Of a stretch of DNA of 64,000 bases, positions 1,717 to 57,882 are shown piece after piece (positions within the stretch are counted from its first letter, which is position 1; every line of letters starts with the position of its first letter). Both the position numbers and the translations under genes were made by a program. Under the pieces are notes generated by a model that worked only from the letters and a program-made list of their open reading frames with translations, searched no databases and was not told the origin of the DNA. The DNA is from a virus (Duplodnaviria > Heunggongvirae > Uroviricota > Caudoviricetes). The DNA is taken from IMG/VR virus record IMGVR_UViG_3300017650_000009. The stretch is one strand, 5' to 3'.

Positions 1717-3195
1717 ATGTCCGAGAATACCGAAGTAAAGACCTATAATGAAGACGTCCAGCGCCTATTATTGCAATTTATGATTTCTGACCCCGCAGCA
1801 TTTGCGCGTTCACAGAATATCATTAATCCCAAGTATTGGAACGATAAGCTTCGTAGTTCTTGCCGTTTTATTATGGAGTATTCTGACAAATACAACGTGT
1901 TGCCATCGCCGGAACAGGTAAAAGCAGAAACAGGTCAGGACATTGCATTACTTCCGGATGGTGAAGCTGTCCGTCATAGCGAATGGTATCTCCAAACAGT
2001 TGAAGAATTTTGTCGTCACAAAGCGATGGAACAACTCGTCCTAGATGGTGCAGGACTTGTTGATAAGGGTTTATATTCGGAACTCGAAAGACGTTCCAAA
2101 GAGAATATGCTGATTTCCTTGCAGAAGGATATGGGCACTGATTATTTTGAAAATCCTCTTGAGCGTTTGCATAGGATGCGCGACCGAACTGGTATGACCA
2201 GCACAGGTTGGAAAGACATGGATGCAAAACTTTACGGCGGGATGAACCGAGGCGAACTTACGTTCTTCGCGGGTGGTCCGGGTACGGGTAAGAGTCTGTT
2301 CTTACAGAATCTTGCACTCAATTGGATTCAAATGGGCCTGAATGTCGTATATTTCTCTTTGGAATTGTCGGAAGAACTCGTTGGTTTGCGCTTTGATGCG
2401 ATGATTGCAGAAACTGCAACCAAACAGATTTTCAAGCATATGGATGACACTGCGATGCGAGTCGCAATGGCTTATAAATCCCACAAGTGGGGCAAGCTAC
2501 AAATCAAAAAACTTCCAGAAGCTGGTACAAAGGCTAACGATCTACGTGCGTATTTGAAGGAATATGAAATCCATCACGGATTCAAACCCGATGGTATCCT
2601 AATCGATTATTTGGATCTATTACATCCGAATAGTGGTAAGGTAAGTCCTTCGGATTTGTTCATCAAGGATAAGTACACATCGGAAGAATTACGTGCATTA
2701 GCTAACGAATATAATGTTCTAGCTGCAACGGCTTCCCAGTTGAATCGTGCAAGTATTCAGGAACAAGACTTCGATAACTCTCACATTGCTGGTGGTATTA
2801 GTAAGATCAATACTGCGGATAACGTGATGGGTATTTTTATGAGTCCACAGATGAAGGAGCTAGGTGAGTATCAGATTCAGTTCCTCAAGACACGTTCAAG
2901 TAGTGGGGTTGGTTCTCGAATCAAGCTCAAGTTTAATCTAGAGACACTTAGAATTGTTGATCATGAAGATGGTGACGCGCCAGTAAGTACGAGCCCGCTA
3001 TCCAGTATTCAGAGAGAATTGTCAGCAAGTAAACCATCGATGACTGTCAAGTCAGGTCCCAATACTCCACCGGATAATCCAACTGGTGCACCAGTATCAC
3101 TTGGAACTACTGTTGCAGGTACACAAAAGACAACTCCCGAAGTAGGTTCTCTTAAGGACCGAATGAACATGATGAAAAAGTTCTCAGGCAAGTAA
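1717..3195 (+). CDS. replicative DnaB-family helicase (T4 gp41-like)
   Basis: Walker A GGPGTGKS; Walker B GILIDYLDLL; RecA-like core; N-terminal primase-interaction-like region. Confidence 0.8.
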   Translation: MSENTEVKTYNEDVQRLLLQFMISDPAAFARSQNIINPKYWNDKLRSSCRFIMEYSDKYNVLPSPEQVKAETGQDIALLPDGEAVRHSEWYLQTVEEFCRHKAMEQLVLDGAGLVDKGLYSELERRSKENMLISLQKDMGTDYFENPLERLHRMRDRTGMTSTGWKDMDAKLYGGMNRGELTFFAGGPGTGKSLFLQNLALNWIQMGLNVVYFSLELSEELVGLRFDAMIAETATKQIFKHMDDTAMRVAMAYKSHKWGKLQIKKLPEAGTKANDLRAYLKEYEIHHGFKPDGILIDYLDLLHPNSGKVSPSDLFIKDKYTSEELRALANEYNVLAATASQLNRASIQEQDFDNSHIAGGISKINTADNVMGIFMSPQMKELGEYQIQFLKTRSSSGVGSRIKLKFNLETLRIVDHEDGDAPVSTSPLSSIQRELSASKPSMTVKSGPNTPPDNPTGAPVSLGTTVAGTQKTTPEVGSLKDRMNMMKKFSGK

Positions 3196-4519: not shown

Positions 4520-5776
4520 GTGCTCATATCCTGCTTAATTGGGGATATGAGCATCAAACATTTTCACGACCTACCAATCAAAACAATTCGCGCAGCTTTT
4601 GCTGAGTCTTCTACTTGGCTAATTAATGAGAAATATGATGGTAGCTATATTCGTGCAGGTTTGGATGCACTGGGACAGTTTTATACCGCACGTAAAGGGT
4701 TGAAGCCAGTTTACTCATATAGGGACTGGGATCCAAAACCATGGGCCGATGCATTTAGATCCGCACATATTGCGTTAGAGTCGTTTGTTGATCGACTCGA
4801 CAGTATGGGGGTAATCAAACCGGGCGACCATATGGATTTTGAGATTATATATGGTAGGCTTCCCAATACTATTGCGTATCCGCATTATTTGGCAAACACT
4901 CTCATCATGTTTGCCACAAATAATAATGAAATCAAAAACCACACCACAACGCTCATGCATAATGATTTGTTTCTACTTGAACATCCGGGGCTATCCTCGG
5001 AAGGTTCAGTTAAAGTCATGTATGATGAATGGACTACTCATCACGGTAGAAGAAAAACTCGTATAAGAACCAATCGAACATGGACTTTTCTTTTTGCGTA
5101 TGATGTGAAATTCAAACATGATATGATTACCGATGAAGCCATGATTAGTATTCCGGCGTTTTTAGATCGTCATATCAAGTTCATGGGTCAGACCCTAACA
5201 ATCGAACAATTACTTGAGACTAAACTCACAAAGAAGCCAGAATGGCTCATTATTAGTGATAGTGGTTGGAAAACACACAAGCCATACTTGCTTGAACAGA
5301 TTAAGCTTGAACGCTCCAAATATCGTGCTGAATTTGCAATGCTTTGTAACCTCAACACAAGAGTTCTAAAACAGTATTGGGCTAGTTTGCATTCGTGGCG
5401 GCAACGCAAATCATCCGAAATTGAAGGAATTGTTGTCCACTTCAAAGTTGATGGTAACCCCATTATAGCCAAGTTCGTAGACACCGAAACATTCGGGCCA
5501 GCCAATAATTTCTCACATATCGTTCGTTATTGGTTACAGGGTGGGCGCCGTCCAGAACGCCCAAGCTTCCTTTCGCGGACAAAAGATTGGCCAGTTGAAA
5601 AACGTTTGGAACGTTTGGAAGTCCTACGTACCCGTTTTATTGATAATCGTCTAAAACTCACAAAAACGTTTCGTGAAACCGAAGTATCATATTATAATAA
5701 TCAGTTGTTCGAGCGCACTGCTTTGTTATTTGCCGAAATAAAGGAAAAGTTGGAAAATGGGTGGACTGGCGTTTAA
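4520..5776 (+). CDS. ATP-dependent nucleic-acid ligase (covalent nucleotidyltransferase superfamily; motif I resembles T4 Rnl1)
   Basis: Motif I EKYDGS (KxDG; T4 Rnl1 has KEDGS); motif IV-like EGIVVHFK; size 418 aa. Confidence 0.55.
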   Translation: MLISCLIGDMSIKHFHDLPIKTIRAAFAESSTWLINEKYDGSYIRAGLDALGQFYTARKGLKPVYSYRDWDPKPWADAFRSAHIALESFVDRLDSMGVIKPGDHMDFEIIYGRLPNTIAYPHYLANTLIMFATNNNEIKNHTTTLMHNDLFLLEHPGLSSEGSVKVMYDEWTTHHGRRKTRIRTNRTWTFLFAYDVKFKHDMITDEAMISIPAFLDRHIKFMGQTLTIEQLLETKLTKKPEWLIISDSGWKTHKPYLLEQIKLERSKYRAEFAMLCNLNTRVLKQYWASLHSWRQRKSSEIEGIVVHFKVDGNPIIAKFVDTETFGPANNFSHIVRYWLQGGRRPERPSFLSRTKDWPVEKRLERLEVLRTRFIDNRLKLTKTFRETEVSYYNNQLFERTALLFAEIKEKLENGWTGV

Positions 5777-6620
5777 AGATAAAACACGTCGTATTCTACG
5801 TGCGGAAGTGGAGCCAACCATCCGTTGGTTATCCAAAATAACCAATATTGATTATGACTATCTTAGTGAGAATCTTCTGGGGTCGGGAGGGCTTGCCGAA
5901 ACCAGCGGTGACTTGGATATCAATATGTGTCAGGACACGTTTAGCGAAAAGGACAAATTCGCTGATTTACTCGTCGATAGGCTTGGTGCGGATAACGTTA
6001 AAAAGCGCCTATACGTGAATCAAATTTTCACTTGCGTTCCAATCAAGGGCGATTCCAATAACGGGTTCGTTCAAGTTGATTTCATGTTTGGTAATGCAAA
6101 ATGGCAACATTTTTCATATTTTTCTCCTGGAGAGAAATCTGCATATAAGGGATTGTTTCGGACGGAACTTATCAAAGCGGCTGTTGCATTCCAATCTGAT
6201 TGGACTCTTTGGGAAGATGGTGAATTGGTTGCGCGTGTGGGTCCAACGTTCTTCCATGATCGTGGCATTGTTTGGCGGTACAGGCATCGTGCTCCACGAA
6301 AAGATGGAAATGGTCGAGTTCAGACTTTCACTCAACTTACTATGGAAGAATTCTGCAAATTATATCCGAAAGCTCCAAAGGTCTCACGGGAAAACATTGA
6401 TTCCCAAATTGGAACATCAATGTTAATATTCAATACGGTTGAACAGACTGGTGCGTTTTTCAGTTATGAGACATTGAGCCGGGCTCTGAGTAATCATTAT
6501 AATACTACTAACTTTGGTATTATAATGACCATGTTCGAAGAAAGATTAAATAGTCTAAAGGTTGACATACCCGAGGACATTAAGAATGAAATTCTTACAG
6601 CAACTGAGCCCGCATATTGA
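5757..6620 (+). CDS. Pol-beta-fold nucleotidyltransferase-like protein
   Basis: GSGGLAETSGDLDI matches the minimal NTase hG[GS]x9-13DhD motif; start overlaps ligase stop (translationally coupled). Confidence 0.35.
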   Translation: MGGLAFKDKTRRILRAEVEPTIRWLSKITNIDYDYLSENLLGSGGLAETSGDLDINMCQDTFSEKDKFADLLVDRLGADNVKKRLYVNQIFTCVPIKGDSNNGFVQVDFMFGNAKWQHFSYFSPGEKSAYKGLFRTELIKAAVAFQSDWTLWEDGELVARVGPTFFHDRGIVWRYRHRAPRKDGNGRVQTFTQLTMEEFCKLYPKAPKVSRENIDSQIGTSMLIFNTVEQTGAFFSYETLSRALSNHYNTTNFGIIMTMFEERLNSLKVDIPEDIKNEILTATEPAY

Positions 6621-7266
6621 AATACATGATGTAGCTCAAAAAGAACAAATAGACGAATCAAGCGTTATCCGCACCATCGATCAGTTGGGCAAATACACTG
6701 CTCGCGATATTGCGGATTTCGCTTTTCTTCATTTCCTAATCCTCCATTTACTTCAAAATGATTTTGAGAGTGCGCTAGTTGTAAAGGGTCATGCGACTCG
6801 TACCCTACAGATGGGCGGACACTTCAAACGTTTCACATTAATCGGTACGGACTTGTATATGTACCTACATGTGTTACTCGGAGGTACACGCGATCGTTTA
6901 AAGAAGAATCCAGCCAATGAGTTGTTTTGGCGTCAACTAGTCCTATCCGAACGCGAAATAAAAGATTCTCTGCAGAATATGTCCAATGGTCGACGTTTGG
7001 ATTCTACTCAATTTCGATTCCTACAAAAGTTAGAAAAAGACTTACGTGTGGATAATTCCAATTATCGTAGCTGTCGTAGACTGATTTCTGATTGGAATGA
7101 TATAACTACAAATGACCAGAGACTTGTCGTTACACGTTTGCTAATGGCTCTCCGTAGTCGTTGCCCACAAAGTGATTTGCTTGTGCCGCTACAGGATTAT
7201 GCACGTCGTAAACATATGGAACTAAAGTCTGCGAAAAACCCGGAGATTCAAAATGAGAGCAAGTGA
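6562..7266 (+). CDS. hypothetical protein
   Basis: ORF track. Confidence 0.35.
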   Translation: MTYPRTLRMKFLQQLSPHIEIHDVAQKEQIDESSVIRTIDQLGKYTARDIADFAFLHFLILHLLQNDFESALVVKGHATRTLQMGGHFKRFTLIGTDLYMYLHVLLGGTRDRLKKNPANELFWRQLVLSEREIKDSLQNMSNGRRLDSTQFRFLQKLEKDLRVDNSNYRSCRRLISDWNDITTNDQRLVVTRLLMALRSRCPQSDLLVPLQDYARRKHMELKSAKNPEIQNESK

Positions 7267-8149
7267 GCTATATGAGTTATTTGATACAAATTCTGATGTT
7301 GAATGGACTATCGATGACGACGACATGAAGGCTGGTTATTTTGAGTTAAACGGTCAAAAATTCAAAATAGAAATATATGTGAAGGATCCCGAGTTGAATA
7401 CTTGGGGAGTAATATACGGATTCATTGAAAACGGCAATGTTCGTTTGAGTCCATCTGGAGATTCTCCTCGTGATGCGTCAAAAGTCCTCGGAACCGTCAC
7501 TAATGAACTAGCCAAATTCATCAATGAACGTAAACCATCTGCATTGGTATTCAGTGGCGCGAAAGGCTACGGCTTGCATAAGCTCTACACGCTCATGCTT
7601 AGAAATTTGGAAAAGAAAATTCAAACTATTGGTTATCATGTTGAATCAAACGTGGATGGTGAAACATCAAACTTTGCAATCGTAAGCAATAAATTTGATT
7701 CCTACGATGATATTAGTTCTGATCTCCATGAGGCTTTTGATACTGAAGCGCATGTTGATTGGATTGAGCAAGAAGCAGATGGGCAAATTGGTGAATTTGA
7801 AGTAAACGGCGTCAAGTTCCAAATCTCATTTGATTCAGCAAAACCTGGAATATGGAAAGTCTACTACGGTGACATCGATGATGGCCCAGATACTAATTTT
7901 AATCCGAATGGTCGATCTGGTAATTCAGCCGTGAAAGTATTGTCTGTAGTTGTGAATATTATTTTGGATTTCATAATCCAACGTAAACCTCAAATGCTTC
8001 GTTTTTCGGGCAGTAAAGGCGTTGGTCTTGGTGCCCTATATAGTAGAATGGCAAGACATTTGGAACCACAACTAGAAAAACGTGGATACTATATCGAAAA
8101 ACAAGAAACAGGTCGCGATGACTATTTTGCGATTGTTAAGAAGGTGTGA
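7253..8149 (+). CDS. hypothetical protein with internal tandem duplication of a ~140-aa domain
   Basis: Two homologous halves: NGQKFKIEIY...RKPSALVFSGAKGYGLHKLY...GYHVE and NGVKFQISFD...RKPQMLRFSGSKGVGLGALY...GYYIE. Confidence 0.5.
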   Translation: MRASELYELFDTNSDVEWTIDDDDMKAGYFELNGQKFKIEIYVKDPELNTWGVIYGFIENGNVRLSPSGDSPRDASKVLGTVTNELAKFINERKPSALVFSGAKGYGLHKLYTLMLRNLEKKIQTIGYHVESNVDGETSNFAIVSNKFDSYDDISSDLHEAFDTEAHVDWIEQEADGQIGEFEVNGVKFQISFDSAKPGIWKVYYGDIDDGPDTNFNPNGRSGNSAVKVLSVVVNIILDFIIQRKPQMLRFSGSKGVGLGALYSRMARHLEPQLEKRGYYIEKQETGRDDYFAIVKKV

Positions 8150-9367: not shown

Positions 9368-11017
9368 TTAGGATTTAGATTTACGAACGTAATCTGTTAC
9401 ATCGCGTCCAATACTTTGAACTTCAACGAATTCACCCTGCTCATCATAAATTGCACGATCAATCCAATCAAGCCAACGAGTCTCACCATTGCGGGAAACC
9501 CTATATAAGATACGTTTTACATTTTGTGAGGAATTAATATCATCCAGATGTTGGAATAAACGATTATGATCACGGATATCAACAATATCCGTAAGTGTCA
9601 TTCCGGAATCAATCTTTTCTGCAAAATAATCATAGAATGTTTGGTTCATAAAATTAAGAACCAAATTTTTACCATAACAACAAACAACATCAAAAGTATT
9701 ATCAGTCATTGTTTTATATCGTTCGCGAGACAAATGTAAAAGTTGTTCCACATCCTTAAGATGCGTGATATCACGAATTACTTTAATGCGAACCTTTTCA
9801 TTCTTCCAATCAATCTCACGTTCATTTATGGCAACCTCAACTGGATTCCCACCTTTAGTCCAGAACAACGTCGTGTATGCTTGGTTCGGCGAGTTCTCCA
9901 TGTTAATGAAACGATGACGCTCTAATGGATGAATAAATGCTTCGGCTGACATCTTGCTTATCTCACTATATGAGAATCCTGTCATCTCACCTAAACGTGG
10001 ATTCCAATCCAAAAGACGCTCACCATTATGAATCATCATTGCTTCATTACTGGCTTGACCAAAGACTCTAAAATGTTCTTCAGACTCCAATAGCTCCTCA
10101 CGAGTAATGACAACATCAGTTTCATCTCTTAGAATAACAAGAATGTCTTTACCTTTTTGGATTGCACGTACTTCAAAATACGTAATCGATCCGTTGTTAT
10201 TTTCAACCTTAAGTGACCATGTTTCCAATGGATTATTCGGTGATAAACCCGCACAACCAATCTTGAATGAATCCAACTGAACAGATGTTAAGAATTCTGA
10301 TAAGTTTTTACCAATATGGGATTCCTGGATAATGGTATCAAATGCAGATGGATTGGACACATCCAAAATATTCAATTGTGTATCAATGGTAACCAAAATA
10401 TCCGGAAGAACTTGAATCATTGCATTTTGGTTCTCAAATACTTCAAGGAAACGTTGTTCGTGTTTCACGTTATCCGTAATGTCTTGAACCAAAAGCATAA
10501 CACGTGAAGTACCATCCGAATGGAGAAACTCACTTATTTTGATATTTGGGTAGAATTTTGTGCCATCAGCACGAATACCTCTGATTTCTAAGTTTCCTTG
10601 TTGGACTAACTCAAATGAAGTCAAGTTGTTCTTGTAAACACTTTTGAACTTGTCAATGGAAATCACACCACAATCGGATTCAAATAGATCTGAAAGTTTC
10701 TGGTTAAGTAAGTTAGTCTTGGAATAGCCAAAAATCTTTTCGGCTGAACCATTTGCATTTTCAAGTTTATTGTTGGGTCCAAGCAAGATTAATGCGTCTG
10801 GAATAACAAGACTTGTTGCTTCAATTTGCCTAGTGTAATCGTCGATACGATCACGCAAACTAGTCGTGACAGATTGTGCCATGCTGAGTGTACCAGCAGC
10901 GGCTTCCATAAAATCGCTATAGCTTTGTTTAGCTTTCTCGGTCTGCTCAGTTTCCTTAAGCAGTTTGTGACTTGCTTTTTTGTCCGTTTGCAGGATCTTA
11001 TTTACGAAAGACTTCAT
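9368..11017 (-). CDS. multi-PAS-domain sensor-like protein (N-terminal coiled coil, at least 3 PAS folds, no obvious output domain)
   Basis: Repeated PAS signatures, e.g. GETRWLDWIDRAIYDEQGEFVEVQSIGRDVTD and ...VRIKVIRDITHLKDVEQ. Confidence 0.6.
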   Translation of the reverse strand: MKSFVNKILQTDKKASHKLLKETEQTEKAKQSYSDFMEAAAGTLSMAQSVTTSLRDRIDDYTRQIEATSLVIPDALILLGPNNKLENANGSAEKIFGYSKTNLLNQKLSDLFESDCGVISIDKFKSVYKNNLTSFELVQQGNLEIRGIRADGTKFYPNIKISEFLHSDGTSRVMLLVQDITDNVKHEQRFLEVFENQNAMIQVLPDILVTIDTQLNILDVSNPSAFDTIIQESHIGKNLSEFLTSVQLDSFKIGCAGLSPNNPLETWSLKVENNNGSITYFEVRAIQKGKDILVILRDETDVVITREELLESEEHFRVFGQASNEAMMIHNGERLLDWNPRLGEMTGFSYSEISKMSAEAFIHPLERHRFINMENSPNQAYTTLFWTKGGNPVEVAINEREIDWKNEKVRIKVIRDITHLKDVEQLLHLSRERYKTMTDNTFDVVCCYGKNLVLNFMNQTFYDYFAEKIDSGMTLTDIVDIRDHNRLFQHLDDINSSQNVKRILYRVSRNGETRWLDWIDRAIYDEQGEFVEVQSIGRDVTDYVRKSKS

Positions 11018-43539: not shown

Positions 43540-45132
43540 ATGTGGACAACAGACCTTAAACAGATTCACAAATTGTTCGACGATGCAGGATTTGAGATCC
43601 GGATCGTTGGTGGTGCTGTCCGCGATCATCTTTTGGGTCTTGAGCCCAACGACATCGATCTTTGCACTGATGCAACTCCAGATGAAATGATTACACTGGC
43701 CGAAACAAACAGTATCAAAGTTATCCCAACTGGTCTACAGCATGGTACGGTTACATTTGTAATCAATGGCGAACCCTATGAGATCACAACTTTGCGAATC
43801 GACGTTGAAACAGATGGTCGTCACGCAGAAGTTGCGTTCACTCGTAGCTTTGAAGAAGATGCTTTGCGCCGGGATTTCACGTTCAACGCTATGAGTTATG
43901 ATATTCATGGTGTTGTGCATGATTACTTCGATGGTCAAGTCGATCTGAAACGCAATGTTGTTCGATTCGTCGGAGATGCCGAAGCACGTATCCGTGAGGA
44001 TTACCTACGTGTATTGAGGTGGTTCCGGTTTTACTCGCGTATGGGTTCGAGTGAACGAACTATGGAAGACGTTGATCTTCTTCGTTTGTTTGGTGAAGAT
44101 TGGATTCAATCGGGTATGGATAAACTCAGTGGTGAGCGCATATGGTCCGAACTGAAAAAGATTTTATCAACCACAAACATGCGACAGGCCGCAATCGATT
44201 TGATTCAAACAGGAATGCTCGAAACAGTCCTGGGTCTTAGTATGACTCAATCCGAACGTGATATGTTCGTTACGCCGTCTTACGAATCATACTCGGTGAT
44301 TTGGAGTATAGAGGAGATTCTGAAATCCGATTTTGGTCATTTCCCACAATTTGTGGAACTTGCTCCAATTACAGTCATTGCACGATTTCTTGCTTCGTTC
44401 ACACCCGAAGAAGCAAACGCGGTAATTGATCGTTTGCGTATGTCTGCATCGGAAGCCAAAGCAATGCGCGAAATGCGCGATTACATGTTGATTGAACTTA
44501 CCGCGGGAAGTGAAACTGCTCGTCTCGATCTCATTTCCGGATTGACACGTACTTCACTTACATATTGGGTTCACTACGCGAGCTCCAAAGGCGTTGATAT
44601 GCATTTGGCTTTGTTTGCTGCGCTAACTTCACCAAATATGTTTCAGCCACGCGATGTTAGTGAAATGATCCGCTCAGTGTTTAAGCCAAACGGCGAAGTC
44701 GAGATGTCGGAAATTGAACCATTTACAATAACGGGCAAGGATCTGATTGAGCTCGGTTTGAAACCTGGTCCAATGTTCTCCAAGATCATTGAGATGGCAC
44801 GATGGAAATGGTACTCAAGCTCATGTAGTATGGACCGTGGACGGCAGCGTACTTGGGTTTCCAAACTGATCGCGGATGCACCCGAGCCGCATGTGTTGGT
44901 CAAACACCTCTATAGTTGTTTCCAAAGTGAACTCGATTTCAATAAGGGAATGGATCATTATGATATCCAACTTCATACCATCGAATGGGCAACTAAGCTA
45001 CCAAAGGGGTTTCATGCAGTTATCGAGGATCGCAAATCCCGTGATGATTGTCGCATGTTTGTATTGTGTCCGACTAAAGCTGCGGCGGTTACGCTCAAAC
45101 TAGAGGACGAATATATGCATGACGCAAAGTAA
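43540..45132 (+). CDS. cca: CCA-adding tRNA nucleotidyltransferase (class II Pol-beta NTase) with C-terminal extension
   Basis: RIVGGAVRDHLLGLEPNDIDLCTDATP head motif; SD ggagaag + ATG 43540 (track ORF starts earlier at 43498). Confidence 0.75.
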   Translation: MWTTDLKQIHKLFDDAGFEIRIVGGAVRDHLLGLEPNDIDLCTDATPDEMITLAETNSIKVIPTGLQHGTVTFVINGEPYEITTLRIDVETDGRHAEVAFTRSFEEDALRRDFTFNAMSYDIHGVVHDYFDGQVDLKRNVVRFVGDAEARIREDYLRVLRWFRFYSRMGSSERTMEDVDLLRLFGEDWIQSGMDKLSGERIWSELKKILSTTNMRQAAIDLIQTGMLETVLGLSMTQSERDMFVTPSYESYSVIWSIEEILKSDFGHFPQFVELAPITVIARFLASFTPEEANAVIDRLRMSASEAKAMREMRDYMLIELTAGSETARLDLISGLTRTSLTYWVHYASSKGVDMHLALFAALTSPNMFQPRDVSEMIRSVFKPNGEVEMSEIEPFTITGKDLIELGLKPGPMFSKIIEMARWKWYSSSCSMDRGRQRTWVSKLIADAPEPHVLVKHLYSCFQSELDFNKGMDHYDIQLHTIEWATKLPKGFHAVIEDRKSRDDCRMFVLCPTKAAAVTLKLEDEYMHDAK

Positions 45133-45135
45133 TTT

Positions 45136-45170
45136 TACAGCGGTCGCCGATCTTCGGCGGTCGCAGCTTT
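45136..45170 (+). terminator. GC-rich hairpin terminator after cca gene
   Basis: cggtcgccga-tct-tcggcggtcg then gcagcttt. Confidence 0.45.
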
Positions 45171-45323
45171 GTCATCAATATTTTGATTTTTCTAGTTGGT
45201 ATACCAATGAACCTAACGAGAAAAAGGTATCCAATACTTACGTGCTTGACATGGCATTGAAACGGTTTCTTGCTGATTTTACGAAATATGACTTTGACAC
45301 CAAAACGGGTGTATTATTAGTTT

Positions 45324-45749
45324 TTGATAAGTTACTTGCAATTGCTTTACGACTGGAATTTGGAGATGAAATTCGTTTCACAAGGACCGTATAATAGCGT
45401 CCATTTTTCTGCAGAACGATCACCGCAATATTATGATGCAAAAAATTTGCATATAGTGGTGTCTTGTTTCGAAGAAGAAGAAAATAAACAACCTAATTTG
45501 AATCGAGACAAGTGTTTCACCTATCTTGCTCGTAGTATCAATGATATGCAGGAAGAATTGCTTTCAAGCGATTTGAGAGATGTTCTAGATCATAAACATG
45601 GTAAATCCATACCGCATCCATACTCGATCGAGCATGAAGCTTATCGAAATAGGGATATATATTTGGCTAAAACCGTTTTGAGCATTGTTACTCGAATCAT
45701 CATTCATGATCCTCTTTTAATGGTACATCTTAAACTCATATATGGTTGA
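45324..45749 (+). CDS. FKLxFG-family protein (exact start uncertain)
   Basis: C-terminus LMVHLKLIYG. Confidence 0.35.
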   Translation: MISYLQLLYDWNLEMKFVSQGPYNSVHFSAERSPQYYDAKNLHIVVSCFEEEENKQPNLNRDKCFTYLARSINDMQEELLSSDLRDVLDHKHGKSIPHPYSIEHEAYRNRDIYLAKTVLSIVTRIIIHDPLLMVHLKLIYG

Positions 45750-45779
45750 CATTTTGGTTGCCCATGCTATATCCGATAT

Positions 45780-46310
45780 ATGGAACAGACATCTTTTTAT
45801 CATCCGCGCTTGAACGCGCATAAAGCCATCGGCGTAGACATTGATTCTACACTGATCGAGGGTCCTTGCAGCTTTTACCTTCAGCGGTGGGTCCAACAAT
45901 ATCACAAAGATATTGAGTTGCACTTGGTCACATTCCGTGTTGAGGATGACTTCGACGCAATTGAGCGTGACATCGGTACATATGGGATGCAACTCGATAT
46001 GTTTCATGGCGTTCATGGCATTCCGCTTGATGTGGCTAATGATTTCTACAAGCTCACAGCTAAAGTCGGCATGAAGGGTCAGGTTAACGAAGCAAAGTGG
46101 AAACGCACACTTGCTTATCACAACACGAGTGAGGAGCAATATGAATCCACATCCACTATGGTCAAAAAGTGGAAAGGGCTCAAATGCCGAGAGCTTGGGC
46201 TTACTGCGCTCATCGATGATCTCGAAGATATGGTTGTTCCAGGTTGCCTCGAACACGGCATTGAATGGATTAATGCCCTAACCCTGACCAAGGACTATTA
46301 TGGAAAATAG
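45780..46310 (+). CDS. HAD-superfamily phosphatase-like protein
   Basis: Motif I DIDSTL (DxDxT) near N-terminus. Confidence 0.45.
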   Translation: MEQTSFYHPRLNAHKAIGVDIDSTLIEGPCSFYLQRWVQQYHKDIELHLVTFRVEDDFDAIERDIGTYGMQLDMFHGVHGIPLDVANDFYKLTAKVGMKGQVNEAKWKRTLAYHNTSEEQYESTSTMVKKWKGLKCRELGLTALIDDLEDMVVPGCLEHGIEWINALTLTKDYYGK

Positions 46311-46548
46311 AATTATCCCCGTAGATGAACTACCTGAGGATCTTGTAATCGAGGATTATGGCATCGTTGACATTCGGTGCTACGGGGGTTCACCTGTTGA
46401 GATAAACGGTCCCATTTATGAGTTGATTCCTGAAGTTACGGAATGGCTCAAAGAGAATTGCCCAAATAGCTTTTTTCATGAGGAAGAGTTTGAGCTGCGC
46501 TTGCATTCGGATCATGATGCTATGATGTTTAAGTTGAGGTGGCTATGA
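46300..46548 (+). CDS. FKLxFG-family small protein
   Basis: C-terminus AMMFKLRWL. Confidence 0.45.
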   Translation: MENRIIPVDELPEDLVIEDYGIVDIRCYGGSPVEINGPIYELIPEVTEWLKENCPNSFFHEEEFELRLHSDHDAMMFKLRWL

Positions 46549-46844
46549 GCCTAATTGATATTGATAACTCGGATATCCTAAACAAGTTGTTTGTGATTCC
46601 GTGGGACGAGTTTAGTTTCTTCGGAACACCAGATGATGTTCCATTTATTGATCATGTTATGGCTAGACTTGAACTTGTCGAGTATCAATCTGATTTTAAA
46701 CAATGGCTTGAAGAAAACAATATGGTAGGAATAAAGCGTAGGTTTTATCTTGAAGAAGTATCGCCAAACAATTTCATGATTCATGTGGAGTTTGCATCGG
46801 ATTCAGAAGCAAACTCCATGCTGTTTAAGTTAACTTGGCTCTAA
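46539..46844 (+). CDS. FKLxFG-family small protein
   Basis: C-terminus SMLFKLTWL. Confidence 0.45.
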   Translation: MAMSLIDIDNSDILNKLFVIPWDEFSFFGTPDDVPFIDHVMARLELVEYQSDFKQWLEENNMVGIKRRFYLEEVSPNNFMIHVEFASDSEANSMLFKLTWL

Positions 46845-47159
46845 TTACTTGGGGCGGTAATCCGTTGGGAACATATCATCGGGATCCGTCCTGCAAAGCC
46901 CACACATTCCATCATGCTCATCACGTTCGGCTTCATCAACGATTTGTATTAAATCATAAACAAATATTGTGAATGCTTGGTTGATCGAAGTAGCAACTTG
47001 TGACGCAATAGCTTGGTTCATCATACGCATGGCGTTATCGATATCGTAGTTTCCACTAGAATACCCACCATTCATATAAGAGCTTGAATATGATTTACCC
47101 GCCAACATTCGAAGTCTGTTACGCATGACATCGGCATCAATTACTTTTTTCTTAGCCAT
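46845..47159 (-). CDS. hypothetical protein
   Basis: ORF track. Confidence 0.4.
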   Translation of the reverse strand: MAKKKVIDADVMRNRLRMLAGKSYSSSYMNGGYSSGNYDIDNAMRMMNQAIASQVATSINQAFTIFVYDLIQIVDEAERDEHDGMCGLCRTDPDDMFPTDYRPK

Positions 47160-47533
47160 AAAATCCAGGCTCCACCTTCATTAAGTTTTTTAATTTTACG
47201 AATTTTCGGATGAAGCGTTGCCCATGTCTCAAACTCTTGAGATATTTGTCCGCTCTTACCCGTAATATGTGTGATCTTCTTATAACCCAAAAGATCAGCT
47301 TGTTCAATATGTTGGAGAATCTCTGCATGTGCTTGCTGAAGAGTCATGTGATGCAAGTCAAGCTTGGGAGAGAAACTAATGTCGCGAACAGGCAACCGAC
47401 GCACACGATGCACGGGTGGATTTAGGTTTGGTGTTGAGAAACACGATGTACTTGACATCGCCTCGTCCCAAAGTGTCTGTTCCTCTTTTGTAAGTTTTCT
47501 CATTTCAATTTTGACTCTTAACCCTATTATCAC
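47141..47533 (-). CDS. Smr-domain protein
   Basis: KLDLHHMTLQQA ... KITHITGKSG resembles Smr LDLHG...HGKG. Confidence 0.5.
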   Translation of the reverse strand: MIIGLRVKIEMRKLTKEEQTLWDEAMSSTSCFSTPNLNPPVHRVRRLPVRDISFSPKLDLHHMTLQQAHAEILQHIEQADLLGYKKITHITGKSGQISQEFETWATLHPKIRKIKKLNEGGAWILWLRKK

Positions 47534-47584: not shown

Positions 47585-48034
47585 ATGTATGTAAGCACCA
47601 AAACATATGGACACGAAATCGGTCTATCATGTGCTTTCCGTCAGTGGCGCGCTGATTCTCATTGCCGTTTTATTCACGGTTACGCGCTGAAGATTCATTT
47701 GGAATTCGAAGCTGATGAGCTCGATGCTCGTAATTGGGTTGTTGATTTTGGATCCCTTAAGAGTTTCAAGCAGATGCTTGAAGATACATTCGACCATAAG
47801 CTTCTAGTAGCGGAGGATGATCCGGAACTAGAAACCCTTAAGGCGCTTCAGGACAAGGGTCTTGCCGAGGTTGTTGTTTTGCCTAAGGCTGGTTGCGAAG
47901 CGTTTGCTGAGTATGTCTTTGGTGCTGCCGAGACATGGATTGCGTCGAATGGTTATGCACCACGTGTTCGTATGCGCCGTGTTGAAGTACATGAGCATGG
48001 TGCAAATAGCGCTGCTTACGTTCCTACCCGTTAA
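47585..48034 (+). CDS. queD: 6-carboxytetrahydropterin synthase / PTPS-family protein
   Basis: CRFIHGY (CxxxHGH-like) and DFGSLKSFK...DHKLL match QueD/PTPS. Confidence 0.65.
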   Translation: MYVSTKTYGHEIGLSCAFRQWRADSHCRFIHGYALKIHLEFEADELDARNWVVDFGSLKSFKQMLEDTFDHKLLVAEDDPELETLKALQDKGLAEVVVLPKAGCEAFAEYVFGAAETWIASNGYAPRVRMRRVEVHEHGANSAAYVPTR

Positions 48035-51431: not shown

Positions 51432-52784
51432 TTAATCGAACTTTAGTTTCCCAAGCTCCACAACTTCTTTCCTGTATATGGATTTTAGCTTCTTAGGATC
51501 AGCCAACGTACTGGTGTATTCGGCAATATTATCCTCAAGACGCTTGATATTCTCCAACACACTAGCATAAGCATCCTGCGCCCAACGATACGAAGGCAAG
51601 CTTACAATGCGATCTAGCTGAGAAGCATCCAATAGAATACCACTAGTAATTGCCTTGACTGCATCAGTTATCTCAGCCTTGTTCGCCATAGTACTGAGTT
51701 TGCTTGGAAGCTTTTTATCGAAACAAATCTTAACAGCGCGCCAATAGTTGAGTGCGTATTCGTCCTCTGCTTTCATATATTCGTATCGTGTGGTGTACCA
51801 CTTAAGGCGCCAATCAACAAATGACTTTACAACATCCTCTGCGCAATCATATTGCTTGATCGTACTGTTATTCCAATCCACTACAACGATACGTTCTGAC
51901 TTCTTCTGACGTAACTTGAGGAAATCAATAGCCTTTGTTTCGTCCCATTTTGCAACAGAACCTCGCGCCATTTTAATCTTAATATCGATGGTCTTAGTCG
52001 AACTATCTGTGTAAGAGTTGATCTTTCCATCGTCCTCAAGTGAGTTTAGGCGTTCTTTAAACTTAGCTAGACTCAGATCAACAGGCAATTCAGTAACATG
52101 CAAGGTAGAGGAATCAATAACCGCAACACGTCCAGTAAACTCCCAGGAATTTTCCTCCAAATGCTTAACTTGCACTTGATAACGCGCATAATCGGGAACC
52201 AAACGCTTGATTTCTTTTCCATCAATTGCTGCGAGTGTTGCTTCAACTAGGCTATTGAAGTTACGACGTAGAATCTCCGTAGACCAACCAACCGCAATAC
52301 CCGATACACCATTGAGCAAAACAGTCGGAATCAATGGAAGGAAATGTACGGGTTCCTTTACCGAACCATCATAGTTGTCCTTTAGCGGGACAATATCAAG
52401 ATCAGTGAGCATGAGATTCTGCAGGACTGAGCCTCTACGAACATACGTATAACGAGGAGCACCAATACCCTCCACTGGGGCAGTTCGTGTACCAAAAGCA
52501 CCAATGCCATTGAGCAGCGGGATATTATTAACGAACGGAGCCGCAAGCATACTGACAGCGCCGGCCGCGCTTGCATCACCATGCAGGTACAAACCAGACT
52601 GAATCATTTCACCAGCAAGTGAAACGGTTTTAACCTTTTCTGATTTATTACGGATTAGCCAAAGAGCTTTACGTTGTGCGTCCTTGAGACCGTCATGAAC
52701 CTTTGGGATTGCTCGGTTCTCACAAACGTAAATGGAATATTCGCGTGAAGTATCTAGGATATAATCTGAACTATTTTGAGCCAT
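51432..52784 (-). CDS. type II DNA topoisomerase, GyrA-like cleavage subunit (T4 gp52-like)
   Basis: HDGLKDAQRKALWLI (GyrA DGLKPVHRR motif); RYTYV active-site Tyr region. Confidence 0.75.
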   Translation of the reverse strand: MAQNSSDYILDTSREYSIYVCENRAIPKVHDGLKDAQRKALWLIRNKSEKVKTVSLAGEMIQSGLYLHGDASAAGAVSMLAAPFVNNIPLLNGIGAFGTRTAPVEGIGAPRYTYVRRGSVLQNLMLTDLDIVPLKDNYDGSVKEPVHFLPLIPTVLLNGVSGIAVGWSTEILRRNFNSLVEATLAAIDGKEIKRLVPDYARYQVQVKHLEENSWEFTGRVAVIDSSTLHVTELPVDLSLAKFKERLNSLEDDGKINSYTDSSTKTIDIKIKMARGSVAKWDETKAIDFLKLRQKKSERIVVVDWNNSTIKQYDCAEDVVKSFVDWRLKWYTTRYEYMKAEDEYALNYWRAVKICFDKKLPSKLSTMANKAEITDAVKAITSGILLDASQLDRIVSLPSYRWAQDAYASVLENIKRLEDNIAEYTSTLADPKKLKSIYRKEVVELGKLKFD

Positions 52785-53749: not shown

Positions 53750-53779
53750 AGGGGTATTTGACCCCTTGGGGTCAAATAC
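53750..53779. other. perfect 30-bp palindromic hairpin at intercistronic junction (no T-tract)
   Basis: ggggtatttgacccc-ttg-gggtcaaatacc; overlaps stop of topo subunit and precedes SD of next gene. Confidence 0.5.
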
Positions 53780-55652
53780 CAATCCAATCTTTTCTGTCGT
53801 CTGAACGACCATTGTTAAAGATCAAGTCCAAGGATTCCTTCATATTGCCATCATCGACGAATCCATAAAGTGCTGGATTATCCAACGAATATTGCCAGTC
53901 ATCCTCGGTAAGCGTTCCAAGACCCTTAGCACGAGTAATAGACCAACCGCTATATTCTTTTGGATCAAAATCCATATAGTTGTCAGAGTACCAGTATTTG
54001 CGTGTTTTGCCCTTCTCCGCAATGATGAATGGAGTCTTGAAAATATTAATAAACGCTGGTAGCTTTGGATCAAAAAGTTCTGGCCAATATGTGTGGAAGA
54101 AATTAATCAAAAGTGCGCCAATATTAAGACCATCCGGATCCATATCGTGCGCAATGTAAACGGAACCATAACGTAGCTCATCACGAACAGCTTTACGACC
54201 CAATACTAGACCCAAACTATTCATGATATCAGCGAGTGCTTTATTCGCAATAACAGTCTTCAGATCTTCACCATTGACGTTTAGAACCTTACCACGCAAC
54301 CCCAAGCCGCCATGGATTTTTGGATCACGAACTGACCCCATACCCGAGATAGCAGATTCACCTTCGGCCAAAAATAGTATGCACTTGGTACGATCGTTGC
54401 CGTTTGCATCCATTAGACCAGCCACTTTACTACGAGAAAGCTTCTTTGCTGCCTTTGCAATATCAGCAGCATCTTTCTTCATAGTGCGTTCGGAACAACG
54501 CTTATAGATTTCTTCAATCCATTCTTTGTTCTTTCGGATAACATCCTTGTATAGTTCAGGATCCTCAAGTGCCTTTGTAACGACCTTGGATACTTCTTCG
54601 TTAATCAAGCGAGTCTTTGACTGCGAATCGAAGTTGGGACCATGCATATTTGTGATGTTATAGATGAGAACACCCTCAGTGACATCACTACGGTTTGGAC
54701 TCAACTTACGACGCTTGCTTTCCTTCTCCAATGCATTCAATAGATTACGATAGAAATCACGTCGGAATGTTTCAATATGAACACCGCCGTTGAAAGCTGG
54801 AATATTATTGACTAGTGTATGGAAATGTTCACCATCATTGATAAAATTCGGAACTAGCCAGAAACGTGTACGGAAGTTGTCTTGTTTGATTTCCAAATTA
54901 ATCGGTTTGATCTTCTCAAACATGGTTTGTTCTGGACGCGGCTTTACTCGGATTTGTGTACCATTGAAATACACCTTAATCAACGAGTTAGCAATCGCAA
55001 TCTCTGTAATACGATCACGAACAAACTCAACTGGCAAAGTAGTATCCGAAAATACCTTCTTGCTTAGTTTGAATGTAACCTTGGTTCCAGTCTTTCCACT
55101 TGTAACATCGATGATCTTTGGTTCACTCGCAACTAGTTCCTCACCAAGTGCTTCATTACCCTCTGTGAAACTCTGGGTGAATTTCTTACCATTGCGATGA
55201 ATCACAAGCTTGAAATATTCGGAACAAAAGTTAACGCCGGCAGCACCAATACCATTCGTGCCAGCTACCTCACCACGTTCTTCGAAATTACGACCTGCAC
55301 GAGCATGAGACAAAGCCAATGTTGCAGCATGAACTTGATGATCATCGTCCCAATCGATTGGAATACCGCGACCATTGTCCTCAACTGACATTTCGCGAGT
55401 TTCAGGATCATATGTTACGTCAAGACGATTACCATGACCATGGCCGACTACTTCATCCAAGCTGTTATCGATGATTTCACGGAAGGCCGTATAAACTGCT
55501 GGAACCCATTTATAGGAGCGAGGTTCTGGTTTAGTTCCGTCATATGCGATGACTGTCTGTTCATGCAAGGCGCGTGAACCAAAATACATTTCAGTCTTTA
55601 ATCGAACGTGTGAATAATCGGTGAGTTTCTTAATTGATTTTTCAGATGCCAT
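53772..55652 (-). CDS. type II DNA topoisomerase, GyrB-like ATPase/TOPRIM subunit (T4 gp39+gp60-like)
   Basis: HVRLKTEMYFGS, EIIDNSLDE, DNGRGIP (GHKL ATPase); LAEGESA TOPRIM motif. Confidence 0.8.
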   Translation of the reverse strand: MASEKSIKKLTDYSHVRLKTEMYFGSRALHEQTVIAYDGTKPEPRSYKWVPAVYTAFREIIDNSLDEVVGHGHGNRLDVTYDPETREMSVEDNGRGIPIDWDDDHQVHAATLALSHARAGRNFEERGEVAGTNGIGAAGVNFCSEYFKLVIHRNGKKFTQSFTEGNEALGEELVASEPKIIDVTSGKTGTKVTFKLSKKVFSDTTLPVEFVRDRITEIAIANSLIKVYFNGTQIRVKPRPEQTMFEKIKPINLEIKQDNFRTRFWLVPNFINDGEHFHTLVNNIPAFNGGVHIETFRRDFYRNLLNALEKESKRRKLSPNRSDVTEGVLIYNITNMHGPNFDSQSKTRLINEEVSKVVTKALEDPELYKDVIRKNKEWIEEIYKRCSERTMKKDAADIAKAAKKLSRSKVAGLMDANGNDRTKCILFLAEGESAISGMGSVRDPKIHGGLGLRGKVLNVNGEDLKTVIANKALADIMNSLGLVLGRKAVRDELRYGSVYIAHDMDPDGLNIGALLINFFHTYWPELFDPKLPAFINIFKTPFIIAEKGKTRKYWYSDNYMDFDPKEYSGWSITRAKGLGTLTEDDWQYSLDNPALYGFVDDGNMKESLDLIFNNGRSDDRKDWIGI

Positions 55653-55810: not shown

Positions 55811-56179
55811 ATGTCTTATATTGCATATGAGCTAGATGAAGTATCAAGAAACAAGCTTTTGGCGATCTTTCCACCAAAGTTTGCTGATTTCATTGGGCAC
55901 CATGTGACTTGGGCATTTGGTGTGGGCTCAGATGTTCCATTGCCGCCGGTTACTGACATTCGTGTTATCGGATATCTCAGCGACGATTCGCTTGAGTGTC
56001 TCGTGGTTGAGGTTGGAGGAACACATGTACGCGAAGATGGTCGAACATACCACATCACTTGGTCGCTTGATCGTGACAAAGGTCGAAAGCCTGCGGAATC
56101 AAATTTTCTTCTTGGTGCTTCTACTTTCTCTAGGATTTCACCTGTGGAGATTCATGCAATCCCCAAGCATTTTAAGTGA
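55811..56179 (+). CDS. 2H phosphoesterase superfamily protein (LigT/CPDase/Acb1-like)
   Basis: Two H-x-T-x motifs: HHVTWAF and YHITWSL. Confidence 0.55.
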   Translation: MSYIAYELDEVSRNKLLAIFPPKFADFIGHHVTWAFGVGSDVPLPPVTDIRVIGYLSDDSLECLVVEVGGTHVREDGRTYHITWSLDRDKGRKPAESNFLLGASTFSRISPVEIHAIPKHFK

Positions 56180-56604
56180 GACTAATGAATAACATTGATA
56201 TGACTGTGGTAACATACCCGGATTACCATTTGGAGCCGGGAGCCCACAATATTGTTGTAACTGGTGGGCATAAAGATCGGCAGCAAATACAAGATTTAAT
56301 TGGTGAGCTTTGGCCCTCCAAAGTCGCAGTTTATCATCTAGAGAATCCGAGTATTCCCAATGTGAATTCCAAAATTGCTCACGCATTCACGTATATGAGT
56401 TTGTCTCATACTCAGATTATTTTGATTGAGCAAACCTCTTCCCTTCTAACCAATATGCTTCCTATTTGCAAAAATGCGTTCATCATTATTGTTGACGATC
56501 AGGCGTTAGAATATGTGACCTGTTCTTTAAACTTGACATATCCGGGTCGCCTGTTTTTTAATATAGAAGACGCGGTTAAAGCTGCAATTTTGGCTACCAA
56601 ATAA
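56176..56604 (+). CDS. hypothetical protein
   Basis: ATGA overlap with upstream gene. Confidence 0.4.
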   Translation: MRLMNNIDMTVVTYPDYHLEPGAHNIVVTGGHKDRQQIQDLIGELWPSKVAVYHLENPSIPNVNSKIAHAFTYMSLSHTQIILIEQTSSLLTNMLPICKNAFIIIVDDQALEYVTCSLNLTYPGRLFFNIEDAVKAAILATK

Positions 56605-56637: not shown

Positions 56638-57882
56638 ATGGCCAACAAAGAACTCACTTGCTCGTTTTGCGAAAAGAGCCAACATGAAGTTAAAAAACTG
56701 ATTGCTGGCCCAGACGTTTACATTTGCGATGGTTGCGCAATTCTCTGTTATGAGATTCTGGATGAAAAGCCAGGTGCAGAACTAAGTGTGTCGGATGATA
56801 CACCTACACCACGTAAGATTAAGGAATTCCTCGATCAATACGTTATTGGTCAAGATGACGCAAAAATGGTTTTTGCAGTTGCAGTTAATGCTCATTATAA
56901 GCGACTCGAAAATCCAATTGTTGATGGAGTTGAACTTGAGAAATCCAACATTTTGTTGCTCGGTCCAACAGGATCAGGTAAAACGCTTATTGCAAAGAGT
57001 ATTGCACGTATGCTTGATGTACCTTTCACGATTGCCGACGCGACGAGCCTGACGGAAGCCGGTTATGTCGGTGATGATGTTGAATCTATCATTAGCCGGT
57101 TGATAGCATCAGCAGAAGGTGATGTGAAGAAAGCCGAACGTGGAATCATCTACTTGGATGAAATCGACAAGAAAGCAAAGAAATCCGAAAATATGAGTAT
57201 TACTCGCGATGTTTCCGGTGAAGGTGTTCAGCAGGCTCTTTTGAAGATCATCGAAGGTTCCGAAGTTCGTGTTCCTGCACAAGGTGGACGTAAAAATCCT
57301 TCGCAGGAAATGCTAACAGTTGATACATCAAATATCCTGTTCATCGTCGGTGGCGCGTTTGTTGGCCTTGAGGCAATCATTGATAAGCGCGTGAATAACA
57401 ACGATAATAGCATTGGTTTCGGTGCAAAGCCAAAGAAGTCTGGAAAACTAGCATATGATGGTTCCCTACTAAAGCAAGTTGAACCAGAGGATCTTGCCAA
57501 ATACGGTATTATTCCGGAACTCATCGGTCGACTCAGTACAATTACGTATCTCGAGGAGCTTAACGCGGAACAGTTGATCCGCGTCCTCACTGAACCTAAG
57601 AACGCGATTACACGCCAATATGAAAAGCTATTTAAGCTGGAAAAGGTCGAACTTACGTTCGAACCAGAAGCTCTTCAATTTGTTGCGGAAACTGCAATTG
57701 CTCGTAAAGTGGGTGCTCGTGGTCTTCGTAGTGTTATCGAGCGTAAGTTGACAAAACTACAGTATGAGCTACCTGAACTAGCAGCGGATGGTGTAACAAA
57801 GATCTCTTTGAACCGTGAGTTCTTCGAGCTTGACACTGCGCCTACCCTAGTGTATGAATCAAAAAAGACCGGTTCTAATTGA
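56638..57882 (+). CDS. clpX: ClpX ATP-dependent protease ATPase subunit
   Basis: N-terminal zinc-binding [11 protein letters not shown]...[10 protein letters not shown]; Walker [12 protein letters not shown]; full-length 414 aa. Confidence 0.85.

Follow-up and report, generated by a model that had tools for sequence, protein, structure and literature searches.

A Pol X acting with a ligase on DNA has a precedent in African swine fever virus (ASFV), which encodes both a Pol X and a DNA ligase. A PolX-ligase fusion of Phaeocystis globosa virus (PgV) is attributed to base excision repair (PMC5537341). No phage enzyme of family X appears in a review on the DNA polymerases of phages (PMC8775771). 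In RNA repair, the pairing of an RNA ligase (Rnl) with the nucleotidyltransferase (NTase) RlaP is known (PMC12776372, PMC7824862); RlaP NTases add one to two nucleoside monophosphates to damaged RNA and are found beside RNA ligases (PMC12776372). Kits containing Rnl1, Rnl2 or RtcB, polynucleotide kinase (PNK)-HAD or 'Swiss-army-knife' (SAK)-HAD proteins, 2H proteins, RlaP and CCA-adding enzymes are recurrent in group 2 and group 3 jumbo phages (Iyer et al. 2021, PMC7824862), so that the general idea of a repair toolkit in such phages is not new. Here, a 64,000-nucleotide stretch of a Caudoviricetes virus (IMG/VR record IMGVR_UViG_3300017650_000009), referred to as the window, was analyzed. Its chief new element is an orphan ligase-like protein devoid of an OB domain together with a Pol X-like NTase, both encoded in a replication block. 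The conserved linkage of a CCA-adding enzyme gene with that of an orphan HAD-like protein is also new.

The phage from which the window derives is a T4-like jumbo phage with a genome of about 435 kb and an alphaproteobacterial host. Its proteins were identical to genes of a 434,884-bp metagenomic contig, and no close DNA match to the locus was found among sequenced phages by megablast. The closest sequenced relative is Phosso (PV764938.1); another relative, Atu_ph07, is placed in the T4-like group 2.2 of jumbo phages (Iyer et al., PMC7824862). The host assignment is pointed to by the transfer-messenger RNA (tmRNA) of the window, which is of the permuted alphaproteobacterial type (Rfam RF04321, 90.4 bits; RF01849, 73.2 bits); its tag was labelled 'not identified' by ARAGORN. 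An initial annotation had already reported this tmRNA and had named five open reading frames (ORFs) as a set of genes for tRNA and RNA repair; the tmRNA is real, and all five ORFs (5/5) were found at their coordinates in the ORF list (Table 1).

The ligase-like ORF (4520-5776) opens at GTG 4520, and the database gene model (P0001) starts from ATG 4547. Residues K29-x-D31-G32, E99, E293-G294 and K309, corresponding to motifs I, III, IV and V, were invariant in 38 homologs, and the protein showed the ligase nucleotidyltransferase fold. Here, as for the other families described below, motifs invariant across the homologs are to be regarded as features of the family and not as chance strings. The KxDG motif I on which the initial annotation had based a likeness to T4 Rnl1 is thus real and conserved, but the likeness itself was not borne out. 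In the comparison with known ligases, Pmar-Lig DNA ligase (10.1), Naegleria Rnl5 (NgrRnl, 10.0), REL1 (9.8), ASFV DNA ligase (9.5), Chlorella virus ligase (9.4) and T4 Rnl2 (9.4) all scored above T4 Rnl1 (8.1, rank 21), and the protein was no closer to Rnl1 than to DNA ligases; a specific likeness to Rnl1, its C-terminal tRNA-specificity domain included, was not found. HHalign comparisons of the family profiles with T4 Rnl1 and gp30 gave single motifs only or nothing, and the ligase-like profile showed no significant similarity by HHalign to the canonical PF09414 RNA ligase of Phosso. PDB sequence and profile searches with the ligase, NTase, HAD and 2H families returned chance-level matches only, and in direct scans of the four window proteins against Pfam, PHROG and NCBIfam the sole match was that of the 2H-like protein to PHROG 36523.

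No OB domain with a motif VI of the gp30 type was seen in the model, the C-terminal region of which (residues 316-403) is helical with one hairpin and without an OB barrel, and no DNA_ligase match was obtained in Pfam. This Arg-rich helical C-terminal domain carries the extremely conserved motif GGRRPxRPSFLSRTKDWP. Weak matches to PF09414 ('RNA_ligase') were obtained for 23 of the 38 members of the family (best E 3.6e-6), the window protein itself not being among them, and weak DUF6267 matches were found for family members as well. Motifs I, III, IV and V are shared with the Rnl2/Rnl5-type enzymes of PF09414 (T4 Rnl2, NgrRnl, REL1) and with DUF6267; like Rnl2, the protein has a helical C-terminal domain and no C-terminal OB domain. 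It is a real member of the ligase superfamily, neither Rnl1-like nor a classical DNA ligase. A function as the replicative DNA ligase was rejected, because Phosso carries a canonical DNA ligase of 675 amino acids (aa) next to its DNA polymerase.

In the NTase, residues G42-S43, G51-D52-x-D54 and D108 showed no or almost no variation in sets of 13 and of 66 homologs, and correspond to the hG[GS] signature, the [DE]x[DE] pair and the third carboxylate of the Pol β superfamily. The assignment as a nucleotidyltransferase was therefore upheld; the description 'minimal' given to it earlier does not fit a 287-aa protein with a family X-like fold. The AlphaFold model (pLDDT, a per-residue model confidence score, of 96) had family X DNA polymerases as its nearest structures by two methods. 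All of the top 50 Foldseek matches were Pol β, λ or μ, and the core of palm and thumb was closest to Pol β, λ, μ and ASFV PolX. The protein starts at the palm and is devoid of the N-terminal 8-kDa and fingers domains. In agreement with the fold result, a weak alignment to the Pol β palm was obtained as a PDB profile match (E~1). Membership of family X was not found with sequence profiles, one of the 66 members giving a weak DNA_pol_B_palm match (E=0.028). No Pfam model exists for the family, none of the 66 members matched PF10127, and HHalign against T4 NrdC.11 (RlaP) gave a probability of 0.2%.

The start of the NTase gene overlapped the stop codon of the ligase-like gene in 14/14 loci, and the two genes adjoined each other in 16/16, an association with a ligase in the style of RlaP. 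The whole block, orf217-primase-DnaB-s88-up239-ligase-NTase, was collinear in all 16 loci, down to 28% NTase identity. An exhaustive search for the NTase gave about 466 representative clusters at 50% identity. Some of these are fusions of ~700 aa with the same ligase family as N-terminal half, as exemplified by P0125, which matched the ligase profile with a probability of 99.7% (E=1.6e-26). In P0166 (1144 aa) the NTase is joined to an HxGH nucleotidyltransferase, to a HAD phosphatase and to a ligase-like DUF6267 domain, and a distant standalone NTase homolog adjoins DUF6267 genes; no mention of DUF6267 was found in the literature. The ligase partners of the NTase are the orphan ligase family of the window or DUF6267, and adjacency, overlap and fusions together indicate that the coupling is functional and not accidental. 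Other large multidomain proteins combine the NTase domain with DUF5661 and a Thoeris-inhibitor Tad3 domain (P0133) or with a GNAT acetyltransferase (P0161).

In the mechanism proposed for this unit (unit 2, 4547-6620), the OB-less ligase-fold enzyme would work with the Pol X-like NTase, to which it is translationally coupled inside the primase-DnaB operon. The NTase would add the missing nucleotide or nucleotides at a 3′-OH, and the ligase would adenylylate the 5′-phosphate and seal the break. Folds, motifs, gene linkages and fusions are the observations; all substrates are inferred. Gaps or nicks in phage DNA, possibly filled with ribonucleotides, seem more likely to be acted on by the pair than tRNA, and filling and sealing of DNA is at least as likely a role as tRNA repair. 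A DNA-associated substrate, the ribonucleotide-patch variant included, is given about an even chance and an RNA substrate is considered rather improbable, the remainder falling to something else.

On the DNA side stand the Pol X-like fold of the NTase, the replication-operon context and the ASFV and PgV precedents. Several points weigh against it. The ligase-like protein is devoid of an OB domain, which to our knowledge is present in all characterised DNA ligases, its family gives weak PF09414 matches, and a canonical DNA ligase is encoded elsewhere in Phosso. RlaP structures may have been missing from the library searched with the NTase model, and the pairing of Rnl with RlaP belongs to RNA repair. 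PNKP-type 3′-phosphatases serve DNA strand-break repair as well as RNA repair, and the HAD domain of P0166 therefore fits either substrate. One possibility is that the pair patches gaps in phage DNA with ribonucleotides and seals the resulting 3′-ribo nicks, by analogy with the POL and LIG modules of bacterial LigD; in such a variant the DNA-polymerase-like partner and the RNA-ligase-like architecture would no longer be at odds.

With respect to the ASFV enzymes and the PgV fusion, the ligase of the window differs in being OB-less and not NAD-ligase-like, the fusions found here have the ligase at the N-terminus, an additional helical domain of ~100 aa is present in the NTase, and no AP (apurinic/apyrimidinic) endonuclease or lyase domain was seen. 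With RlaP (PF10127) and its ligases (T4 NrdC.11; Pseudomonas RtcB-RlaP-RtcA) the pair has in common a Pol β-superfamily NTase composed of an N-terminal catalytic and a C-terminal helical domain and coupled genomically to a polynucleotide ligase (PMC12776372). It differs from them in the lack of a sequence relation to PF10127 or T4 NrdC.11, in having family X polymerases as nearest folds, and in lying in a replication operon and not in an RNA-repair operon. The full proposal, in which the pair is an unrecognised and widespread 'fill-and-seal' system of phages, with the first phage family X-like polymerases and an OB-less RNA-ligase-like sealer in a primase-helicase operon, is put forward as a speculative one of low probability.

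The initial assignment of a 530-aa CCA-adding enzyme was confirmed. The ORF opens at TTG 43498, the 530 aa being counted from ATG. Matches were obtained to Pfam PolyA_pol (PF01743, 3.9e-32, residues 20-142) and PolyA_pol_RNAbd (1e-5), to PHROG 2244 'tRNA nucleotidyltransferase' (1.1e-61) and, in the PDB, to human TRNT1 (4x4w, 1.2e-59; 1ou5, 1e-58) and a poly(A) polymerase (1e-21). The TRNT1 match spans residues 2-224, and the body and tail region is also present. The motifs GGAVRD, DIDL, RRDFTFNAM and EDYLRVLR were found in the TRNT1 alignment, the first two representing motif A (GGxVRD...DxD) and 'RRDFTFNAM' and 'EDYLRVLRWFRFY' representing motifs B (RRD) and D (EDxxR), which hold the nucleotide-selection residues separating CCA enzymes from poly(A) polymerases. 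The best NCBIfam match was the CCA tRNA nucleotidyltransferase model NF009814, with 189.7 bits below the cut-off of 290, and the E. coli-type multifunctional CCA model NF008137 gave 85.7 bits (cut-off 451). An HD phosphohydrolase domain was not among the Pfam matches. From these matches the protein is predicted to be a true CCA-adding enzyme of class II, of the eukaryote/alphaproteobacterial type and without an HD domain, and, judged by its scores under the NCBIfam equivalog cut-offs, a divergent member; it is an ordinary new member of a known family.

The head motifs A, B and D are shared with TRNT1, alphaproteobacterial class II enzymes and PHROG 2244, to which the window enzyme adds a C-terminal extension of ~85 aa (residues ~445-530) with no detectable homology. 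This extension is present in Phosso (522 aa) and in the related contexts L028 (530 aa) and L029 (503 aa) and absent from Atu_ph07 (421 aa), the only genome where the HAD gene directly abuts the CCA gene. In contrast to the multifunctional E. coli enzyme, the window enzyme has no HD domain, and a separate, linked HAD gene is present instead.

E. coli Cca is known to rebuild damaged CCA ends. No tRNA gene was found in the window by ARAGORN. In Phosso, eight of the eight tRNA genes sampled encode their own 3′-CCA, and the tmRNA of the window encodes CCA as well (ARAGORN), so that the CCA enzyme is not needed for de novo maturation. Repair or maintenance of 3′ ends is accordingly a more likely role, by analogy, than tRNA maturation; the enzyme would rebuild CCA ends trimmed by exonucleases or defence nucleases, and care of tRNA 3′ ends by the phage is plausible. 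An investment of this phage lineage in the maintenance of tRNA and translation is supported, and relatives carry a peptidyl-tRNA hydrolase, a canonical PF09414 RNA ligase (gene 111 of Phosso) and a 2H-SAK protein (gene 101 of Phosso, annotated 'RNA ligase'). Phosso also has genes for a histidyl-tRNA synthetase fragment, peptidyl-tRNA hydrolase, IF-1 and peptide deformylase, and for NAD kinase, an NMN transporter and NMN adenylyltransferase.

The HAD-like protein contains all four HAD catalytic motifs (D20-x-D22-x-T24, T51, K132/K135 and D146-D147), invariant in the 6 known homologs; the family has six members, all from this phage lineage. No sequence match was obtained in Pfam, PHROG, NCBIfam or PDB. 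HHalign of the family against T4 Pnkp aligned only 14 residues around motif I (probability 2%), and HHalign of its profile against the HAD domain of P0166 was negative. The HAD phosphatase described initially thus stands as far as its motifs and its linkage to the CCA gene across relatives are concerned, but a relation to T4 Pnkp does not extend beyond motif I, and no profile-level relation to polynucleotide phosphatases was detected by HHalign, Pfam or PHROG. The depositors of Phosso gave the ortholog the label 'polynucleotide kinase'; an attempt to trace this label with a relaxed PHROG scan was negative for the family, and the basis of the label was not reproducible. The protein shares DxDxT and the three other HAD motifs with the T4 Pnkp phosphatase, PNK-HAD and 'Swiss-army-knife' HADs, and like the HADs of jumbo-phage RNA repair (PMC7824862) it is small, standalone and encoded near a tRNA 3′-end enzyme. 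It differs from T4 Pnkp in the absence of profile-level similarity and of a kinase domain, and in belonging to a family of six members.

In 5/5 contexts (window, Phosso, Atu_ph07, L028 and L029) the two genes share a strand, with HAD downstream of CCA. In the window the two are 648 bp apart. The number of small ORFs between them was two in the window and in L028, five in Phosso and L029, and none in Atu_ph07, where the CCA stop overlaps the HAD start; those of the window gave no family matches in Pfam or PHROG. No convincing terminator was found between CCA and HAD in the window, and unit 1 (43540-46844, + strand) is probably a co-transcribed array headed by the CCA gene and including HAD. In gammaproteobacterial CCA enzymes, an HD domain removes a blocking phosphate. 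By analogy, we infer that the HAD-like protein may take the role of this domain as a 3′-end-healing phosphatase, which would remove a blocking 2′/3′-phosphate and leave the 3′-OH free for CCA addition.

Against this stand the observations that the linkage was seen within one phage lineage and that a cadherin-like giant gene upstream and the Smr and 6-pyruvoyl-tetrahydropterin synthase (PTPS) genes downstream were syntenic in all contexts as well, which makes inherited gene order a serious alternative; the HAD-like protein could also be a nucleotidase. On such an account, the CCA enzyme would serve ordinary tRNA supply, that is, maturation or 3′ turnover of a large tRNA set and the tmRNA where host CCA activity is limiting, while the HAD-like protein would be a phosphatase of nucleotides or small molecules, such as a nucleotidase shaping nucleotide pools, and would be a neighbour by inherited synteny, with ancestry alone giving the linkage. 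Relatives do carry 33-66 tRNAs per genome (PMC11242549), another HAD-type 'phosphatase' is present in Phosso, and the HAD-like protein matches no polynucleotide phosphatase profile. The account is nevertheless regarded as unlikely: the CCA encoded by the sampled tRNA genes and the tmRNA makes de novo maturation dispensable, the CCA and HAD genes persist as anchors while the 0-5 ORFs between them vary, down to the overlap in Atu_ph07, and the depositors' label for the Phosso ortholog is of the polynucleotide kinase/phosphatase type. Repair of tRNA 3′ ends, with the HAD-like protein as a putative healing phosphatase, is preferred.

The 122-aa 2H-like protein (unit 3, 55811-56179) contains two motifs, H31-V-T33 and H81-I-T83-W-S85, which are 50 residues apart and invariant in 29 homologs. 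It matched PHROG 36523 (4e-32), labelled as function unknown in the database. A faint match to tRNA_lig_CPD, a 2H family, was given by four of the 29 members (E=0.12), and no other 2H match was found in Pfam. The family had no PDB sequence match and showed no similarity by HHalign to E. coli ThpR or to the 2H-SAK protein of Phosso. In SCTP-2 and RsoM2USA no RNA-related genes were found next to the 2H-like gene, some neighbours being replication-related, e.g., a clamp loader. In comparison with 2H phosphoesterases (LigT/ThpR, the tRNA ligase CPD, 2H-SAK), the protein shares the two H-x-T/S motifs and is close in size to the 124-position 2H-SAK, but it has no profile or HH support and its motifs are only 50 residues apart. 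The 2H phosphoesterase named initially is therefore retained for its two motifs, PDB and HHalign having added nothing to it, and a minimal 2H enzyme is given a little better than an even chance. The alternative, in which the HxT motifs are part of a small fold that is not related to 2H and has a different function, has a considerable probability, short of even. The missing Pfam, PDB and HH matches, the short distance between the motifs and the uninformative or replication-related neighbours in distant phages favour it, while the invariance of both motifs over the 29 homologs, the four tRNA_lig_CPD matches and the existence of small 2H domains of ~124 positions (Pfam 2H-SAK) oppose it. A 142-aa ORF (56176-56604, + strand) and the 2H-like gene overlap at the stop codon of the latter and may therefore be co-translated; the ORF is followed by a ClpX-like ATPase (56638-57882, + strand), and subunits resembling topoisomerase II/IV are encoded at 53772-55652 and 51432-52784 (− strand).

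The genes that had been grouped as one set are scattered across 52 kb. The ligase-NTase pair occupies 4.5-6.6 kb and CCA with HAD 43.5-46.3 kb, and the tmRNA and the 2H-like gene are located at 26.4 and 55.8 kb, respectively; CCA and HAD are the only neighbours, and no cluster exists in this sense. Nor do the data fit a single toolkit of the T4 Pnkp/Rnl1 type, as had been proposed, the genes being dispersed in separate units. A search of the window revealed no homolog of T4-type Pnkp, Rnl1 or gp30 and no PNK-like P-loop, and no ortholog of the canonical Rnl, the 2H-SAK protein or the second phosphatase of Phosso; such orthologs may sit elsewhere in the 435-kb genome. A 5′-kinase activity had not been clearly assigned in the initial annotation; a kinase domain is absent from the window.

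In a T4-like kit for tRNA repair directed against anticodon or CCA-end nucleases of the host, the 2H protein would open 2′,3′-cyclic phosphates, the HAD protein would remove the 3′-phosphate, the NTase would restore nucleotides as RlaP does, the ligase would seal as an Rnl, and the CCA enzyme would rebuild the 3′ ends, the tmRNA completing the set. Group 2/3 jumbo phages are known to carry such kits (PMC7824862), RlaP NTases have the corresponding activity beside RNA ligases (PMC12776372), and in P0166 the NTase is fused with a HAD and a ligase-like domain. The OB-less ligase family with its weak PF09414 matches, the bona fide Rnl and 2H-SAK protein of Phosso, and the CCA already encoded by phage tRNAs are in line with it too. 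Yet the ligase is no closer to Rnl1 than to DNA ligases and is unrelated at the profile level to the canonical Rnl of Phosso, the NTase matches neither PF10127 nor T4 NrdC.11 and has DNA polymerases as nearest folds, and the pair lies inside the primase-helicase block in 16/16 loci. In addition, the genes extend over 52 kb with CCA and HAD as the sole linked pair, the window lacks a 5′ kinase, the HAD-like protein shows no relation to Pnkp beyond motif I, and the 2H assignment rests on motifs. A kit of this kind is held to be improbable. As an explanation of the whole, three separate units and not one coordinated toolkit is the best, with roughly equal chances of being right or wrong.

Table 1. 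Coordinates of the features of the window, with the proteins of the main units first.
Feature	Position	Strand	Basis
Ligase-like covalent nucleotidyltransferase, 409 aa, orphan family	4547-5776	+	Motifs, model
Pol β-superfamily NTase, family X-like core and C-terminal helical domain, 287 aa	5757-6620	+	Motifs, model
Class II CCA-adding tRNA nucleotidyltransferase, 530 aa	43540-45132	+	Pfam, PHROG, PDB, NCBIfam matches
HAD-superfamily phosphatase-like orphan, 176 aa	45780-46310	+	Four HAD motifs; CCA linkage
Candidate minimal 2H phosphoesterase, 122 aa, two H-x-T motifs	55811-56179	+	Motifs
Permuted (two-piece) alphaproteobacterial tmRNA, tag AANDNVSAEMALAA	26399-26917	−	ARAGORN, Rfam
Toprim primase	672-1712	+	Pfam Toprim_2 3.2e-4
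DnaB-like helicase	1717-3195	+	Pfam DnaB_C 6.3e-20
Two small ORFs between CCA and HAD (91 aa, 45119-45394; ~127-141 aa ending 45749)	45119-45749	+	ORF list
Smr-domain protein, directly downstream of the CCA-HAD array	47141-47533	−	Pfam Smr 5.2e-7
6-Pyruvoyl-tetrahydropterin synthase (QueD-like)	47585-48034	+	PF01242 1.3e-19
Giant repeat protein, 1192 aa	39854-43432	−	Upstream of CCA
Giant repeat protein, 1292 aa	34811-38689	−	Upstream of CCA

The Smr gene beside the CCA-HAD array, listed together with an ORF at 46845-47159 (− strand), was syntenic in the window, Phosso, L028 and L029. Smr nucleases such as E. coli SmrB cut mRNA where ribosomes have collided, a step that precedes rescue by tmRNA, and the occurrence of Smr, tmRNA and a CCA enzyme in one phage hints at manipulation of ribosome rescue. 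The PTPS gene adjoins the Smr gene, is syntenic in relatives and suggests a 7-deazaguanine modification (of the queuosine or preQ0 type) of tRNA or of phage DNA. Upstream of CCA, the giant repeat proteins are probably a virion fibre or adhesin; an ortholog gave a Cadherin_3 match in L028 and L029 and is annotated as 'putative internalin' in Atu_ph07.

Just past the primase-helicase-ligase-NTase block, on the opposite strand, a PAS-domain protein of 549 aa is encoded (9368-11017; PAS_9, 5.8e-23, three stretches); Phosso and the distant contig L024 also have a PAS gene there. For a phage, a sensor-type protein at such a location is unusual. A 298-aa DUF6934 protein (7253-8149, + strand) seems to have been duplicated internally in tandem, in that 'ELYELFDTNSDVEWTIDDDDMKAGYFELNGQKFKIEIYV...' is repeated as 'DLHEAFDTEAHVDWIEQEADGQIGEFEVNGVKFQISFDS...'.

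The linkage of CCA and HAD, if functional, would amount to a bacterial 'CCA addition/repair' enzyme split in two and would suggest that the host attacks tRNA 3′ ends when infected by a jumbo phage. The ligase-NTase pair outweighs it in significance, being kept across a large group of giant phages and fused elsewhere, with an NTase that belongs to no curated family. If its substrate is DNA, polymerases of the family X type and an OB-less ligase would join the replication and repair repertoire of phages; if it is RNA, the pair would be a second, RlaP-independent system for restoring nucleotides in RNA repair. Either outcome would help to annotate hundreds of 'hypothetical' phage genes and might provide new ligase or polymerase reagents.

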